Shown: piece after piece, positions 1 through 13,576 of the stretch
Layout: every line of letters starts with the position of its first letter
How positions within the stretch are numbered: the first letter of the stretch is position 1
UHGV virus genome: UHGV-0126577
Reading direction: 5' to 3' (one strand)
DNA: 28,400 nt
Source of the DNA: a virus
Made by a program: the position numbers and the translations under genes
Notes under the pieces: model-generated
Told to the model about the DNA's origin: nothing
Seen by the model: the letters and a program-made list of their open reading frames with translations, nothing else
The model's database searches: none

Positions 1-403
1 CCGGCAACGCCTTTTTAGCTTTGCGTGGGTTAACCACATGGCCTTTAGTCCAGTACTCGTAGAGCACATCGTCACACTCTTCCTGATACTGGATTACCTT
101 GTCGCGGATTTCAGGGCGGACTTTGTTAGGGCTGATGGTTTGCAACCAGCCAGCAAGTTTGCGAAGTGCCAAACAAATAATCTCACGGCGCTGTTCATCC
201 CCAGGAAGCTGCATTGTGATTTTCACAATGCAGGTTTTAAACCGCTGCTTCATTTTCGTAAACTGTGAAGCCCAATCCATACCCATGCCTTCAACGATAG
301 GTTTCATTGGGGTGTACGGTTCTCCGTTGTGATTGACAACATAAAGTTCTGCGCCGTGGAATGGCACGTTGATAGTAGATACCGCTGTTGCTATACTCGT
401 CAT
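1..403 (-). CDS. Phage antirepressor-like protein (Ant-like), N-terminal part; start at 403, 3' end beyond the window
   Basis: Minus-strand frame open from the ATG at 403-401 to position 1 (MTSIATAVSTINVPFHGAELYVVNHNGEPYTPMKPIVEGMGMDW...). Not in the ORF track because no stop falls in the window. Sits downstream of the Arc-like gene as ant does in P22 immI. Family assignment is from memory of Ant/Bro-N-type N-termini. Confidence 0.55.
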   Translation of the reverse strand, partial: MTSIATAVSTINVPFHGAELYVVNHNGEPYTPMKPIVEGMGMDWASQFTKMKQRFKTCIVKITMQLPGDEQRREIICLALRKLAGWLQTISPNKVRPEIRDKVIQYQEECDDVLYEYWTKGHVVNPRKAKKALP

Positions 404-475
404 GTCGTTAATTCCTATACGTAGTTTTACGATACTGAAGCCCTGACGGTCTGGCCACCGTTGGGCTTCGCTGTT

Positions 476-643
476 TTATGCCACGCTATTCTTCTCACCA
501 GTGAGTCCATACACTTTCCTCAGCTGATAGATAATCTCTGTATTGAACTTTCGGCATTCTTTTTCGCCATTTCTTTCAATAGCTAACTTCACATCGTCCG
601 GAAAACGAACCCGTCGTTGACACATCTCTTTTGCTTTTTGCAT
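476..643 (-). CDS. Arc-like ribbon-helix-helix repressor (55 aa)
   Basis: The ORF 476..679 is trimmed to the internal ATG at 643-641, which is preceded by AAGGAG with a 7-nt spacer. Product MQKAKEMCQRRVRFPDDVKLAIERNGEKECRKFNTEIIYQLRKVY... has an RHH-like beta-strand/helix pattern and lies between the mnt-like and ant-like genes. Confidence 0.6.
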   Translation of the reverse strand: MQKAKEMCQRRVRFPDDVKLAIERNGEKECRKFNTEIIYQLRKVYGLTGEKNSVA

Positions 644-763
644 TTCATATCTCCTTAGCCCCACCGTGGGGCAAAACAATTGTCACACCGTGCGTCATTG
701 ATGTCAAGCACACGGTGAGGCATACTTCAATCATTGCAAGTAACTCAATATTTGGTGAAGAAC
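644..763. promoter_or_regulatory. Divergent, overlapping promoter/operator region (Pant-like on minus, Pmnt-like on plus)
   Basis: Minus strand: perfect -35 TTGACA (complement of 702-707), 17-nt spacer, -10 GACAAT (complement of 679-684). Plus strand: -35 TTGATG 698-703, 17-nt spacer, -10 CATACT 721-726. Heptamer CACCGTG at 662-668 and 686-692 and its reverse complement CACGGTG at 711-717. GC-rich inverted repeat GCCCCA-CCG-TGGGGC at 658-672, just upstream of the Arc-like SD. Confidence 0.45.
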
Positions 764-1195
764 ATGAGCAGAGAAGATCCACAACTAAGGATCAGACTTC
801 CCGTTGAAGTAAAAGAAAAAATAGAAATTTCTGCAAAAGCCAATAAGCGATCAATGAACGCTGAAATAGTACAACGTCTTGACACCAGCTTTCTGAAAGA
901 TATTCATGAAGATGACGTAATTTCTGCTTATGAAGCAAAAATTATTGCAAACAATGCACGGCATGAAATATCAAATATTATTTTCAAAAGAACTTTTAAT
1001 GAAATCAATAAAAAAATAACACTTGGACATACAAGTTTTTATATAAACCTTAATGACCTTGAACTGGAATCACTTGCAGATAATGATTACCAGATCATCT
1101 TTGAAAAAACATTTAATAAGCTCAATGAACTAGGTTACATCATCTGTGAAAACTCATGGGATGCAGATGGTTTTGGAATTGAAATACCTGAATAG
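764..1195 (+). CDS. Mnt-like ribbon-helix-helix repressor with an extended AT-rich C-terminal domain (143 aa)
   Basis: The ORF 734..1195 is trimmed to the ATG at 764. N-terminus MSREDPQLRIRLPVEVKEKIEISAKANKRSMNAEIVQRLDTSF matches the Arc/Mnt RHH pattern (P22 Mnt has RMPMEVREKL...GRSMNSELLQIV). The C-terminal ~95 aa are encoded by markedly AT-rich DNA. Confidence 0.6.
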   Translation: MSREDPQLRIRLPVEVKEKIEISAKANKRSMNAEIVQRLDTSFLKDIHEDDVISAYEAKIIANNARHEISNIIFKRTFNEINKKITLGHTSFYINLNDLELESLADNDYQIIFEKTFNKLNELGYIICENSWDADGFGIEIPE

Positions 1196-1285
1196 GAAGA
1201 ACAAAAGGCGTGTACATATTACACGTCTTTAATACAATTGAAAAACGCCACATTACTGATGTATGTTACAACAAGGAGCGATATT

Positions 1286-1849
1286 TTGAAAACCATATCT
1301 ATATTAAAGGTTGCATTAGGCGTCGCTATTATTTTGACTCTCTCAATATTGTTTTATTTTTACCACAAAAAAACTGCTATTGCTCTTGATGGTCACGCGG
1401 CAAACTCATTTTTCTCAGAGTACATAGTGCCGCTATCAGGAAGCGGTATAACAAATAAATATACTGACTATGACATCAAATATGGAATTGATGATGGGGA
1501 GACTATTGCATTACATGTAATCATTAAAAACCTAATGACAGTAAATAAAAATACAGACTTCAACGATAAAAATACAATACATCACAACAACAGCAAAACA
1601 TTAATTTCTTATAGTAGCAACATCTATACGGATAAATACCTAAAATACATCTCAGAAGATACAATAAAAGCAACCAGCGAAAAGTTAAAAAACATATATT
1701 GTGCATCCGGCAGTTTTCACAAATTATCGCCGCAAGAGCGTTTATTCTACGAAGCAAGAAAACAACGTAAGTCAATAATATTACATTATTATGCTGATTC
1801 AGGGGAGTCACTCATATTTAATATTGGGGTTTCCCCTGAATCATGCTAA
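1286..1849 (+). CDS. Membrane-anchored orphan protein (cargo/moron; candidate superinfection-exclusion-type function)
   Basis: Track ORF is 1238..1849. The in-frame TTG at 1286 is preceded by AAGGAG (1273-1278, 7-nt spacer) and gives an N-terminus KTISILKVALGVAIILTLSILFYFY typical of a signal-anchor. The ATG at 1238 lies within a candidate -35 (TTGAAA 1238-1243), so the start is uncertain. Very AT-rich compared with neighbours. Occupies the position of sieA in P22. Confidence 0.5.
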   Translation: MKTISILKVALGVAIILTLSILFYFYHKKTAIALDGHAANSFFSEYIVPLSGSGITNKYTDYDIKYGIDDGETIALHVIIKNLMTVNKNTDFNDKNTIHHNNSKTLISYSSNIYTDKYLKYISEDTIKATSEKLKNIYCASGSFHKLSPQERLFYEARKQRKSIILHYYADSGESLIFNIGVSPESC

Positions 1850-1860
1850 AGGCGTTTAAC

Positions 1861-4800
1861 TCACCGCATCACCGGATCCACCTGGTTTATTAGTGGCGCA
1901 ATCCAGAACAGGTTATTGCCTGGTATCAGGGTTCGGACATTATGCACAATACGATCACCGGCATCACCATTCAACACTCCTGCGGTCACATCAATGATGC
2001 TATCCGCAAGACCAAATGACGGTCCGAATAGAGATCCTACGAATCCACGACTGGCATACCTAGACTGTGTGCCAGTGCCAAATAAAGCCCCCAGCCCAAC
2101 AGCACCACCAGTAGCCTTTTCAGCCATGTTGTTATATTCCATCAATGGCCCAAGAATACCGGATCTATCTATACCCTCAAGCACCAGCTTCTCTGGTGAC
2201 CAGTCAACATTTTTCCCTTTCGATGCTTCTTTTAGCGCATAGACCAGTGAGCCAAGAGCAATCTGAAATGCAGTGCCATAATAAAATTGCGCAGTTCCTT
2301 CCTGTAACCCACCAAGTAGCGCACGGTTGTATGAAGCCGTTGTGAATGATTTAAACTGAAATATCGTTCGCCCCATTGGAGTACTCGCCCATAAAGGTGT
2401 GTCACCAATACCGGGGGTGATGATAGTGTTATTAACGTCTTTCAGAACCGCTGACTGGAATACTCCGGCAACGTACTGATCGTCCCATTTATCAAAGTTA
2501 CCAATGTGCCATCCCTCAATTACCTCACCATGTTTCTCGAACTCACTGCGAATACGCGCAGCCATATTGTCGTTGATACCGAGTTTTGCCATGCGACGTG
2601 CAGAAAACGCACCAGACAAAATACCGTCTGACGTGAGCATTCCGTTCATGGATTTGTTTATGTCATTAAATCGATCCATGAGTGTCAGCTTGCCGAAGGC
2701 ATCAGTAATTCGCTCCATTCCTGCTTCGACTGCTGTTGTCCTGGAAGAACTGTCAACAAGATCACCAATTGCACGAGAACGTGAATGCAGTACAGCTTCC
2801 AATCCAATCCCCATCTTCAACATCTCTTCTTTGCTGGCCTTAAATGCCGGTGATTGGGATATCTGAGAAGCATAGCCTTTCATGGTGTTACGGAAACCAT
2901 TAACCATAACCCCTCTGGCCAGATCTGGAATAGCTGATACTGTCATTCCACCGAGTTTGGTCGTGAAGTTCACATCCCGCAGAAAAGCGCCAGCACGAAC
3001 AAAAAACGAAGACGGATCATCAGGCATACCATATGTACCAACAAGACGATCGCGTAATGCTGTTATGTCTCTGAGATCATTTGCTCTTGATTTTGAAAGT
3101 CTGGACTGTTCTTTCCGTAATTCCTTTTCGTACTTTCGCATTAATGAATCGAGTTTACCCTGAGGAACAACTTCACCATTGCTCTCATAACGTGCTTTCA
3201 GATTTGCCACACTTTCGTCATATTTCGCCTTTATTTTTTCAGGCACTTCCCGTAACAGACTGTCATATTCGTCCTCAATTAATTGCAGACGCTCAGTCAT
3301 AGTTCGTTTACCAAATGTTCTCGTCAACTCAATTTCTGCTGCCGCTTCACGGATATGACGTTGCAGCACGTAATTCACATCACTTTCAAGATAATCCCTG
3401 ATAAGACTATCAGGAACATTTAATGTTCTTTCTTTCGTACTACCTGCGGCTTTTACAGAAAATACGCTGACAAAATCCTGTGGAACCTTAGCACCAGTAA
3501 TTTTATTAATTACGATATCCGCTGCAATTTCAGCATCCTCAGGATCCAGTGTTTTATTTCCTCTCGACCACCAGTCAACCAAAATACGTCGAAATTTATC
3601 GCGTTCACTGATTATTTTTCCAACTTTATATATACGTGGAAAATAGCTTGCCTGGCCTAATGCTTTCAGTTCTTCATCTGGCGGTAATAAACCAAGCTTT
3701 TGCATTTCAACCTTCACCCGATTTAATACAGTTCGCATCGCCTGCGCCGTTTCCTGAACAACAGGATTAGCATGCACATCACCGCTTCGCATAGCATTCC
3801 CAACCTGCTGACGAAATGAATCAAAACTCATGTCGCCACCATCAGCTTTATACTTTGCGTATGCCTGTTTATTTCCGACAACAACAGCAGCTTCTTCACG
3901 CTGCCATCCACGTGTACGGGTTTCTACAGCTACCGGTGTTTCAATCCCCCTTTCATTTCCTTTAAGGGTGAAATTATTTTCGGCTAACTCCAGCGTTGTT
4001 TTTCGCACTGTCTTGGACGGAGACTCCATTAACCTTGTCAAAGGAGTAAGATAGCTCCCTGCTTTCCATGCAGCCTTTCCAACCCACCCACCGGAAACAG
4101 GGGTTAAATCATCCAGAGTCGCTGTATCAATTTTCATAGCACCAACACTACCACCATCAGAAAGCGAAGCGGCAGCCCTGTCAGTCGCTGATGTAATGCT
4201 CATATTATCAAGAGCATCAGCAACCTCACGTGTGGCTGCAGCCCGGACGGATGGCGAAAGCGCAACACCAGCACTGGCAAACACGCCGCTCATCATCGCA
4301 CCCGCTGCAACGTGAGCGGCACTTTCACCCCATGAGCGTGTTATTTGCTGATTATTCAGCACAACCTCGCTTAATGCTGTACCGGCAGCACCAATCGCAA
4401 TCTGTGAGCCAATACGCGCCAGTGCCCCTCCTTGAGCACCGGGGATAAACATTGACGCAACAGTAACCGGATCCATTCCCGCAGCAATACTGGCAAGAGT
4501 TCCAACTACGCCAGCATCAGACAATAAACGTCTGTCTTCATTTTCATCATCTATCTGCTGCTTAATCCACGCCGTTTCCTCTGGCGATCGGGAATCTGCA
4601 AATTTCGCCCCCCAGTATTCATAACCGTGCAACTCATTTTTATCAGCATATGGGTTATAACCTTCGACCAGTTCAAACTGTCTGGCTGGTCGGAAAAAAC
4701 CAGCCAGAATATTGTTCTGTCGCATTGCAGCCCCCCATACGGAAGGCTCCGGTGGCAATGGCTCAGGATTAGCCCCTTCCGGAAGGGCAACATCAAACCC

Positions 4801-12589: not shown

Positions 12590-13576
12590 TTACACCACGC
12601 GGGCTTCTGTTTCCAGAAGCGCATCAGTTTCACGGATTGGTACACCACGGAATGAAGTCCACCACTCTCCTTCTGTCTCTTTTACGCTGATCGCCAGAGA
12701 TGTTTTCTCCAGAGATTGCAGATCAAGAGCCTGGCCTACAGTGCGGTTCATGTAGAACACCGGGCGACCCATGCCACGATTTGGAATGCGATGCAGTGCT
12801 TTAACCATCAACTTCGCAATATTTGCGGCAGAGGAAGGTTCTGAAAGATTGCTGACATCGATGTTTGCAATGCGAACAACATAACGCCAGTCACGCAGAG
12901 AAAGTCCGTTATCCCATTTGTAATGGGTACGATAGCCTTCGTACTTGCCGCCATTAGCATCTTCCAGTGTCACCTGGCCTTTATCTTCCATCTGGATGCC
13001 AGCCTTCTGCCCTTTCGGGAAGATGCCATGCACGGTGTTTTCGCCCCACACCACTAACCAGATTGAGGTGTTATCTGTACCCGTGCCACCAGCATCAATG
13101 ATGTTCTGAGCATTACCCGCAGACAGGCTGGAATAGCGGGAGGACAGTCCCATAAACTGCTGAGGGTTAACGCTGGAATCACCATAAAACAGCGTCTGCG
13201 CCATCTGCTGATTCATCGCTTCAATAAATGCGCGGTCTTCAGACAGGCGGAATTCGGCGGTATTGCCGTTCAGATCAGCCAGTGACTTATCGACTTCAGC
13301 ATAGGTTTCCAACATACCAATGGAATCGGTGACCTGCACTGTGGTTGATTTGCTTGGTTGTACACCATAGTTCAACAAACGCCAGGTAGCTGAAGGTAAA
13401 CCAGAACGAATGGTGGTTTTGTGTCCGGTAGGAAGGTTCCCTTCGACAAAAGGCATATCCTGAAGGATCGGGTTAGTTTGACCGAGAAGCTCGATAATCT
13501 TATCGACTTTCCCATCTTTATCGACGCGCTTACCCCAGTCAGCCAGCGTTAGCGCAGTTAAGCCTTTAACAGCCAT
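12590..13576 (-). CDS. Major capsid protein (328 aa)
   Basis: Strong SD GAGAGGAA upstream of the ATG at 13576. Immediately follows the scaffold gene. Size is typical of a podovirus HK97-fold capsid protein. Confidence 0.75.
   Translation of the reverse strand: MAVKGLTALTLADWGKRVDKDGKVDKIIELLGQTNPILQDMPFVEGNLPTGHKTTIRSGLPSATWRLLNYGVQPSKSTTVQVTDSIGMLETYAEVDKSLADLNGNTAEFRLSEDRAFIEAMNQQMAQTLFYGDSSVNPQQFMGLSSRYSSLSAGNAQNIIDAGGTGTDNTSIWLVVWGENTVHGIFPKGQKAGIQMEDKGQVTLEDANGGKYEGYRTHYKWDNGLSLRDWRYVVRIANIDVSNLSEPSSAANIAKLMVKALHRIPNRGMGRPVFYMNRTVGQALDLQSLEKTSLAISVKETEGEWWTSFRGVPIRETDALLETEARVV

Follow-up and report, generated by a model that had tools for sequence, protein, structure and literature searches.

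On sequence grounds, the interval at positions 644–763 of the virus genome UHGV-0126577 (28,400 nt; this entire stretch is referred to below as the window) is the control region of an antirepressor switch of the immI type known from phage P22, with the antirepressor gene ant, the antisense RNA sar and its promoter Psar, a gene for a small Arc-like ribbon-helix-helix (RHH) protein, and a divergent gene for a Mnt-like RHH repressor. Three copies of a heptamer in this interval are probably the cores of three 17-bp Mnt-type operators that lie between two back-to-back promoters, which would make the locus a three-operator variant of the immI switch. All three sites are concluded to be Mnt-type operators and are predicted targets of the 143-aa Mnt-like repressor encoded at 765–1195. 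As judged from the related loci, this three-operator architecture is widespread yet undescribed, and literature searches for this operator or for the immI region of Escherichia phage TL-2011b, which shares 96.6% identity with positions 1–1900 of the window, found nothing.

The likeness to P22 immI had been proposed in a preliminary description of the window and is borne out by profile and pairwise searches. The ant product matches PF10547 (P22_AR_N, the N-terminal domain of Ant; E = 3.1e-45) and phrog_524 (anti-repressor Ant), and is annotated as Ant in TL-2011b. The Mnt-like protein matches PF03869 (E = 1.1e-14) and shares 32% identity with P22 Mnt over residues 1–86 (BLASTP, E = 3e-14). The Arc-like protein shares 33% identity with P22 Arc (BLASTP, E = 4e-5) and matches phrog_228 (Arc-like repressor). 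In addition, the sar RNA matches Rfam family RF00262 over its full length of 1–68 (45.2 bits, with a gathering score of 43; E = 1.8e-7).

Three dyad-symmetric sites spanning two divergent promoters

The heptamer CACCGTG occurs at 662–668 and 686–692 and its reverse complement CACGGTG at 711–717, with centres at 665, 689, and 714 and spacings of 24 and 25 bp. Direct reading confirmed these coordinates, as well as those given earlier for the inverted repeat and the promoters. Each heptamer lies within a longer dyad-symmetric site. Site C (O1) at 657–673 reads AGCCCCAC-C-GTGGGGCA (full site AGCCCCACCGTGGGGCA) and has 7/8 symmetric pairs; its half-sites match the half-site of the family, TGCCCCAC, at 7/8 and 8/8 positions. 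This site includes the inverted repeat GCCCCA-CCG-TGGGGC at 658–672, which had been described as lying 15 nt before the Shine-Dalgarno sequence of the Arc-like gene. In fact, 15 nt is the length of the repeat, and it ends 1 nt from the AAGGAG (656..651, minus strand). Site B (O2) at 681–697 reads TGTCACAC-C-GTGCGTCA (full site TGTCACACCGTGCGTCA), with 6/8 symmetric pairs, and site A (O3) at 706–722 reads AAGCACAC-G-GTGAGGCA (full site AAGCACACGGTGAGGCA).

These three sites span two divergent promoters. The promoter directed toward the arc-like gene and ant (Pant-like; 707..679, minus strand) consists of a perfect TTGACA at 702–707 and GACAAT at 679–684, separated by 17 nt, with an extended -10 TG at 687..686. 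It was found independently by a consensus scan (10/12). The promoter directed toward the mnt-like gene (Pmnt-like; 698–726, plus strand) consists of TTGATG at 698–703 and CATACT at 721–726, also with a 17-nt spacer, and was identified by direct reading; its -10 is CATAAT in most relatives. The two promoters are arranged back to back, with their -35 hexamers overlapping at 698–707 by 2 bp, and the predicted transcription starts at ~672 (minus strand) and ~733 (plus strand) are ~61 bp apart. Relative to the predicted starts of Pant and Pmnt, respectively, site C is centred at +8 and -68, site B at -17 and -44, and site A at -42 and -19. Site B covers the Pant spacer and -10 and adjoins the Pmnt -35, and site A covers the Pmnt spacer and touches the Pant -35.

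The three heptamers could have clustered by chance in an intergenic patch rich in GC, and the total count agrees with such an explanation, as four copies are present on both strands of the 28.4-kb window and 3.3 are expected. However, a cluster of three within 56 bp is expected only 7e-5 times under a Poisson model and was obtained in none of 1500 mononucleotide shuffles. Furthermore, the positions of the heptamers are kept across loci from Gamma-, Beta-, and Alphaproteobacteria. With these comparative data a chance origin is refuted, and we regard its probability as negligible. Palindromic flanks are lacking around the fourth copy, at 13031, and a search for further operator copies elsewhere in the window found none.

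The comparison was based on 105 related loci (25 from genomes and 80 from viral contigs), which contain 71 distinct upstream regions, 60 of them of the Enterobacterales type. Almost all of the 71 regions have three CAC-N-GTG heptamers in the same arrangement. The relatives are distributed across Enterobacterales, Yersinia pestis, Acinetobacter, filamentous Pf phages of Pseudomonas, and Burkholderiales, and the Mnt-like N-terminus is almost always accompanied by three sites. The exact type of the window is present in 36 of the 5426 complete Escherichia coli genomes. When the 60 Enterobacterales-type regions are anchored on site B, their consensus is ...tGCCyCACsGTGrGGCA-(variable spacer)-aAgTGTCACACCGTGCGTCATTGatGTCAACCCCACsGTGGGGCATAaT. 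The operator consensus of the family is a 17-bp palindrome, TGCCCCAC-S-GTGGGGCA, with palindromy that extends ~7–8 bp on each side of the centre. The heptamers and the promoter hexamers are at least 90% conserved, and outside the three sites and these hexamers nothing in the intergenic region is conserved among the 60 loci, so that no separate element can be recognised there as an operator for the Arc-like protein. On one strand the conserved promoter is TTGACA-17-GACAnT, in which the -10 is mostly GACA(c/a)T and the GTCAA of the -35 is at least 90% conserved; on the other strand it is TTGnnG-17-CATAAT, in which the GGCATAaT of the -10 is conserved.

The individual sites differ in how they vary among these relatives. 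The centre base of site C is C in 41 cases, G in 15, and T in 3, and that of site A is C in 37 cases, G in 20, and A in 3; one flip of the centre base was found even between close E. coli relatives. Such free flipping at sites C and A is what would be expected at the dyad of a site for a symmetric protein. Site B has the flanks TGTCA|CGTCA in 55 of the 60 loci, and its centre base is C in 59 of them. The flanks of site A are AACCC|GGGCA in 50 of the 60 relatives, which produces the near-perfect palindrome ACCCCAC-S-GTGGGGC. In most relatives site A is therefore near-perfect, whereas in the lineage of the window site A is degenerate and site C is perfect. The sequence between sites C and B is not conserved, and their spacing is 24, 26, or 27 bp.

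Two variants of the arrangement were also observed. In IMGVR_UViG_2808606796_000003, a deletion has left a lone hybrid site, GCCC[CACCGTG]AGGCATAAT, that connects the arc-like leader directly with the Pmnt -10; a recombination event between sites C and A appears to have eliminated site B together with all of the Pant promoter. In two Proteus loci (L012 and L014), the core of site C is degenerate (CAATGTG) and sites B and A are retained. In some lineages, site C is thus the most tunable or dispensable of the three.

Relation to the P22 Mnt operator

The P22 record BK000583 annotates both Omnt and Oarc. Its Omnt palindrome is AGGTCCAC-G-GTGGACCT, with a centre that is exactly CACGGTG. Although the preliminary description regarded the heptamer sequence as different from that of the P22 operators, the annotated Mnt operator AGGTCCACGGTGGACCT of P22 has CAC-S-GTG precisely at its centre, and it is the outer half-site positions that differ. 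In the arc direction, P22 reads TATATT-ctcaat-AGGTCCACGGTGGACCT and the window reads GACAAT-tgttt-TGCCCCACGGTGGGGCT, such that the operator centre follows the Pant -10 at a distance of 15 bp in P22 and of 14 bp at site C. The CCACGGTGG core (CCACSGTGG) is identical between P22 Omnt and the window, and the outer positions differ symmetrically. Because the spacing to the Pant -10 matches and the core is identical, the palindrome GCCCCACCGTGGGGC is taken as the homologue of Omnt and not as an RNA element. Accordingly, what had been described as a GC hairpin in the arc leader is a DNA palindrome in the position of Omnt, and the relatives give no sign of selection for an RNA hairpin.

The alternative that the palindrome at 658–672 functions within the arc-ant mRNA, as a 5'-terminal RNA hairpin that could affect stability or translation, has some basis in that the arc-strand RNA forms a 6-bp stem (-10.7 kcal/mol) beside the Shine-Dalgarno sequence. 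However, the z-score of this structure is just -1.8. Among 17 distinct variants of site C, the hairpin is intact on the arc strand in 8 and on the opposite strand in 10, such that there is no strand-specific conservation. In addition, the same type of palindrome recurs twice more in the window, and the best copy in the relatives (site A) lies upstream of the inferred mnt start. An Rfam search of positions 1–2000 found sar as the only RNA family match. The RNA-element reading was rejected on these grounds and is considered very unlikely.

Alignment with P22 immI, which had been suggested as a check, gave a divided result: the Mnt operator core is shared, and the P22-type Arc operator is absent from the window. 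Specifically, the 21-bp TAGA-box Arc operator ATGATAGAAGCACTCTACTAT has no match within 3 mismatches in the window, and the Pant spacer holds a CAC-S-GTG site in its place. The Pant spacer is also where Oarc of P22 is located, 3 bp farther from the -10 than site B. The promoter arrangement differs as well. In P22 the promoters at 1194–1222 (plus strand) and 1199–1227 (minus strand) each have the -35 over the -10 of the other, whereas here the -35 hexamers overlap back to back. The arc-mnt intergenic region is 121 bp here (644–764) and 90 bp in P22, and it contains three Mnt-type operators instead of one. The two loci share a mnt gene divergent from arc-ant, an antirepressor with the P22_AR_N domain, sar and Psar at the arc-ant junction, two RHH repressors, and a Mnt-type palindrome with a CAC-S-GTG core 14–15 bp past the Pant -10. 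By gene content, sar, and the Omnt homologue, the locus is a member of the immI group; it lacks Oarc and the P22 form of promoter overlap, and it has gained two operators and a new C-terminal domain of Mnt. According to the literature, the "ant moron" varies greatly, and studies have been confined to its P22 version (PMC2629481; PMC8022706).

P22 Mnt binds as a tetramer, and its Arg2, His6, Asn8, and Arg10 contact operator bases. When the N-terminus of the Mnt-like protein (MSREDPQLRIRLP) is aligned with that of P22 Mnt (MARDDPHFNFRMP), the equivalents of Arg2 and Arg10 are both kept, whereas H6 is replaced by Q and N8 by R. A profile of the Mnt-like family, which has 260 matches at E<=1e-5, matches the structure 1mnt at 2.2e-7. 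Among 29 proteins that otherwise share just 59–69% identity with the query, this N-terminus varies by no more than an occasional L8F or L12I, and across the related loci it has the form MSREDPQL[RK]xRxP. The protein is longer than P22 Mnt (143 aa compared with 83 aa). In its AF2 model (pLDDT 80.6), the RHH domain is followed by a long helix (55–86), which corresponds in alignment to the C-terminal region of P22 Mnt, and by an additional alpha/beta domain at the C-terminus.

A natural series of Mnt types places these substitutions beside their operators. P22 and epsilon34 have the strand HFNFR and the half-site AGGTCCAC, phages L and SE1 have QFNLR and AAGACCAC, and the Mnt-like family of the window has QLRIR and TGCCCCAC. 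Across these types the CAC-S-GTG core is kept, and the flanks and the variable strand residues change together. The two Arg residues that are invariant over the Mnt types may correspond to the invariant CAC/GTG. A distinct immI specificity, as previously suggested for this locus, is plausible, given that the Mnt-like protein has Q and R in place of H6 and N8 of P22 Mnt and that the outer half-site is TGCC in place of AGGT. Phages L, ST64T, and SE1 have a Mnt-type N-terminus (MGRDDPQFNLRLP), and a perfect palindrome with the same core, TAAGACCAC-G-GTGGTCTTA, lies upstream, but this is a single operator and arc and ant are both absent. The immI regions of these phages are regarded as degraded (PMC8022706).

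The sites may also be read in another mode, in which one RHH dimer binds each heptamer, as in the heptads of omega repressor or the MetJ boxes, and the flanks tune affinity, in place of one tetramer for each 17-bp operator. Only CAC-S-GTG is invariant over all lineages, with flanks that vary by lineage and by site, and each strand has two Arg residues that could make contact with both G of a GTG. However, the flanks remain palindromic to ~7 bp on each side within each lineage (e.g., GGGATCACGGTGGTCCC, AAACCACCGTGGTTT, and GCCCCACCGTGGGGC), and the binding of a single dimer per heptamer is disfavoured for this reason. Moreover, the annotation of P22 extends the Mnt operator, which has the same heptamer core, beyond the 17-bp palindrome at the core of the site, and the Mnt-like protein retains the long helix alignable with the C-terminal part of P22 Mnt. 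This binding mode is judged quite improbable.

Assignment of the sites to the Mnt-like and Arc-like repressors

The preliminary description assigned the heptamers as an operator set for the two RHH repressors. The operator cores were supported by the comparison, whereas the assignment to both repressors was not, as all three sites track the Mnt-like protein. In Acinetobacter, Pseudorhodoferax, and Giesbergeria, the three-palindrome layout with overlapping -35 hexamers is present and the divergent gene encodes a different small RHH protein. In Xenorhabdus and Serratia the layout is accompanied by a divergent gene for a 58-aa protein that has no Pfam match, and in the Pseudomonas filamentous phage PfAC03 by a gene for an HTH_17 excisionase. 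The Mnt-like N-terminus is the sole constant partner of the three sites across these lineages. Because the layout persists where the divergent gene is no homologue of Arc, the sites are assigned to the Mnt-like repressor.

The PfAC03 cassette (820–900 of that phage) illustrates this point. It has a Mnt-like N-terminus (MSREDPQFKLRMP), three CAC-S-GTG palindromes (GGGATCACGGTGGTCCC twice and AAGACCACCGTGGTCCA), and back-to-back overlapping -35 hexamers (TTGCTG and TTGACA). The Pmnt -35 form TTG(a/c)(t/a)G is also found in Xenorhabdus. PfAC03 differs from the window in that it is an inovirus, the excisionase takes the place of arc-ant, and the operator flanks are different. In Pf prophages, an Arc-family gene replaces repressor C, and genes with Arc/Mnt domains have been noted without an operator analysis (PMC7549136). 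The arrangement in PfAC03 suggests that its three-operator cassette may control excision or the choice between lysis and lysogeny.

A division of labour between the two proteins was considered as an alternative explanation. In this scheme, site C is the sole operator for the Mnt-like repressor, and the Arc-like protein, which would shut both promoters as Arc does in P22, uses sites B and A as its operators or half-sites. P22 Oarc likewise lies in the Pant spacer, near the position of site B, and the family-specific flanks and fixed centre base of site B are unlike those of sites C and A. In addition, the strand residues Q9, R/K11 (R11 here), and R13 of the Arc-like protein, which are predicted to face the DNA, repeat the Q-x-R-x-R pattern of the Mnt-like protein, such that the Arc-like protein could read CAC-S-GTG. 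A similar mirroring of the Mnt-like strand by the partner RHH protein is seen in several outgroups (e.g., PQLKIRLP with AQVKIRLP or VQLKIRV). However, three sites in the same layout are found with an excisionase (in PfAC03) or with another partner that has no RHH match. In most relatives it is site A, not site C, that fits the common palindrome best, and its flanks are the same as those of site C. Furthermore, the Arc-like search returned 80 loci, and in every one of them the Mnt-like gene and the sites are present as well. As the Arc-like gene is never alone among these 80 loci, the co-occurrence shows no independent association and is uninformative on which protein the sites belong to. Taken together, this division of labour is considered unlikely. 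Site B remains a candidate for the Arc-like protein because of its location in the Pant spacer, like P22 Oarc, and its fixed flanks and centre base, and this protein probably works either at site B or at the same set of operators as the Mnt-like repressor.

Several observations weigh against the interpretation as three Mnt-type operators. Literature searches returned no binding or transcription data for any member of the family, and the conservation statistics are drawn from related sequences, such that the observations are not independent. The fixed centre base and non-consensus flanks of site B hint at a second reader or other constraints. Site A has only 4/8 symmetric pairs and may therefore bind poorly in this lineage. 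The centre spacings of 24–30 bp are off helical phase, which makes cooperativity between the sites speculative. Finally, TTGATG-17-CATACT scores 8/12, below the scan threshold, and was not called as a promoter; yet it is kept in the 60 related loci as TTG(a/c)(t/a)G-17-CATAAT.

If the three sites are operators of the Mnt-like repressor, occupancy of site C, which is just downstream of Pant as Omnt is, would block arc-ant transcription and lysogeny would be maintained. Sites C and B occupied together would shut off arc-ant, i.e., the role that P22 Mnt plays in keeping the antirepressor off in the lysogen. Occupancy of site A would result in negative autoregulation of mnt, and site B, next to the Pmnt -35, could help Pmnt or be neutral.

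With 17-bp sites spaced by 24 and 25 bp over a pair of divergent promoters, the layout is similar to that of OR in phage lambda rather than that of P22. In lambda, OR1, OR2, and OR3 are located between PR and PRM with spacings of 24 and 23, and are read by CI and Cro. By analogy, both systems have three dyad sites of 17 bp spanning divergent promoters, with two sites on the "lytic" promoter and one on the promoter of the repressor, and the middle site adjoins the -35 of the repressor promoter. Both may also be seen as pairing a large maintenance repressor that has a C-terminal domain with a small repressor encoded by the first gene. The differences are that the proteins here are of the RHH type rather than the helix-turn-helix (HTH) type, and that the module governs an antirepressor instead of the primary immunity region. 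An RHH-built equivalent of lambda OR, in which the Mnt-like protein (as the analogue of CI) and the Arc-like protein (as the analogue of Cro) share the three operators with different orders of preference, is a tentative and rather doubtful reading. If it is true, the odd flanks and fixed centre base of site B would set the preference order of the two repressors. A bistable two-repressor switch would then have evolved apart from the HTH switches, in a cassette that moves among podoviruses, prophages, and filamentous phages.

Surrounding locus and implications

The phage that carries this locus is of the TL-2011b type. TL-2011b is a Uetakevirus (PMC11522302), whereas P22 is a Lederbergvirus. Related Uetakeviruses align to the window only from ~7.4–8.2 kb onward, and the block that bears immI is for this reason interpreted as an inserted module. 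A distant blastn search of positions 600–800 against phages found nothing but TL-2011b.

The ant gene (1..403, minus strand; ATG at 403..401) is represented by its 5' part and leaves the window at the start of the stretch. Within the beginning of ant there is a Psar-like promoter, TTGATA-17-TATACT (369–397, plus strand; 10/12 in the consensus scan, with TG before the -10), that has the same position relative to ant as the annotated Psar of P22. The sar RNA (405–472, plus strand) is complementary to the ant leader and ribosome-binding site and closes with a terminator hairpin; the consensus scan found a terminator-like site at 448–467, followed by a T run, at its end. The loop of this terminator (453–465) has GGCCACCGTTGG, which is one change from the operator core CCACCGTGG, probably by chance. 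The Arc-like gene (643..476, minus strand; 55 aa, beginning MQKAKEMCQRRVRFP) is directly upstream of ant, was identified from the list of open reading frames, and belongs to a protein family with 34 distinct members. Its Shine-Dalgarno sequence is at 651–656 on the minus strand.

On the other side of the intergenic region, the mnt-like gene (765–1195, plus strand) is followed by a terminator-like hairpin at 1209–1225, which the consensus scan calls on the minus strand; by eye, a T-rich run follows the stem on the plus strand. The next gene (1286–1849, plus strand) encodes a predicted membrane protein of 187 aa that belongs to phrog_8033 (unknown function) and has no Pfam match. Its placement between mnt and a large injection-type gene is that of sieA in P22, and it may be a superinfection-exclusion gene. 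In TL-2011b, one extra G is present at ~3788–3792 (~789–791 of the window), in codon 9 of the mnt-like gene (CTAAGGGATC compared with CTAAGGATC). The mnt-like gene of TL-2011b is therefore frameshifted, and its record lists just a shorter "hypothetical protein" with a start farther downstream. This extra G may represent either a real mnt-null phage, in which derepression of ant would be expected, or a sequencing error.

The immI region of P22 and its Arc and Mnt proteins are textbook models of RHH-DNA recognition and of secondary immunity, and the loci compared here indicate that a different architecture is common. Because strand residues and half-site flanks co-vary in a natural series, the RHH recognition code becomes directly testable. 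In addition, the operators described here allow a prediction of the immunity specificity with which antirepressors are controlled in the prophages of pathogenic E. coli, and they may do the same for excision control in Pf phages.

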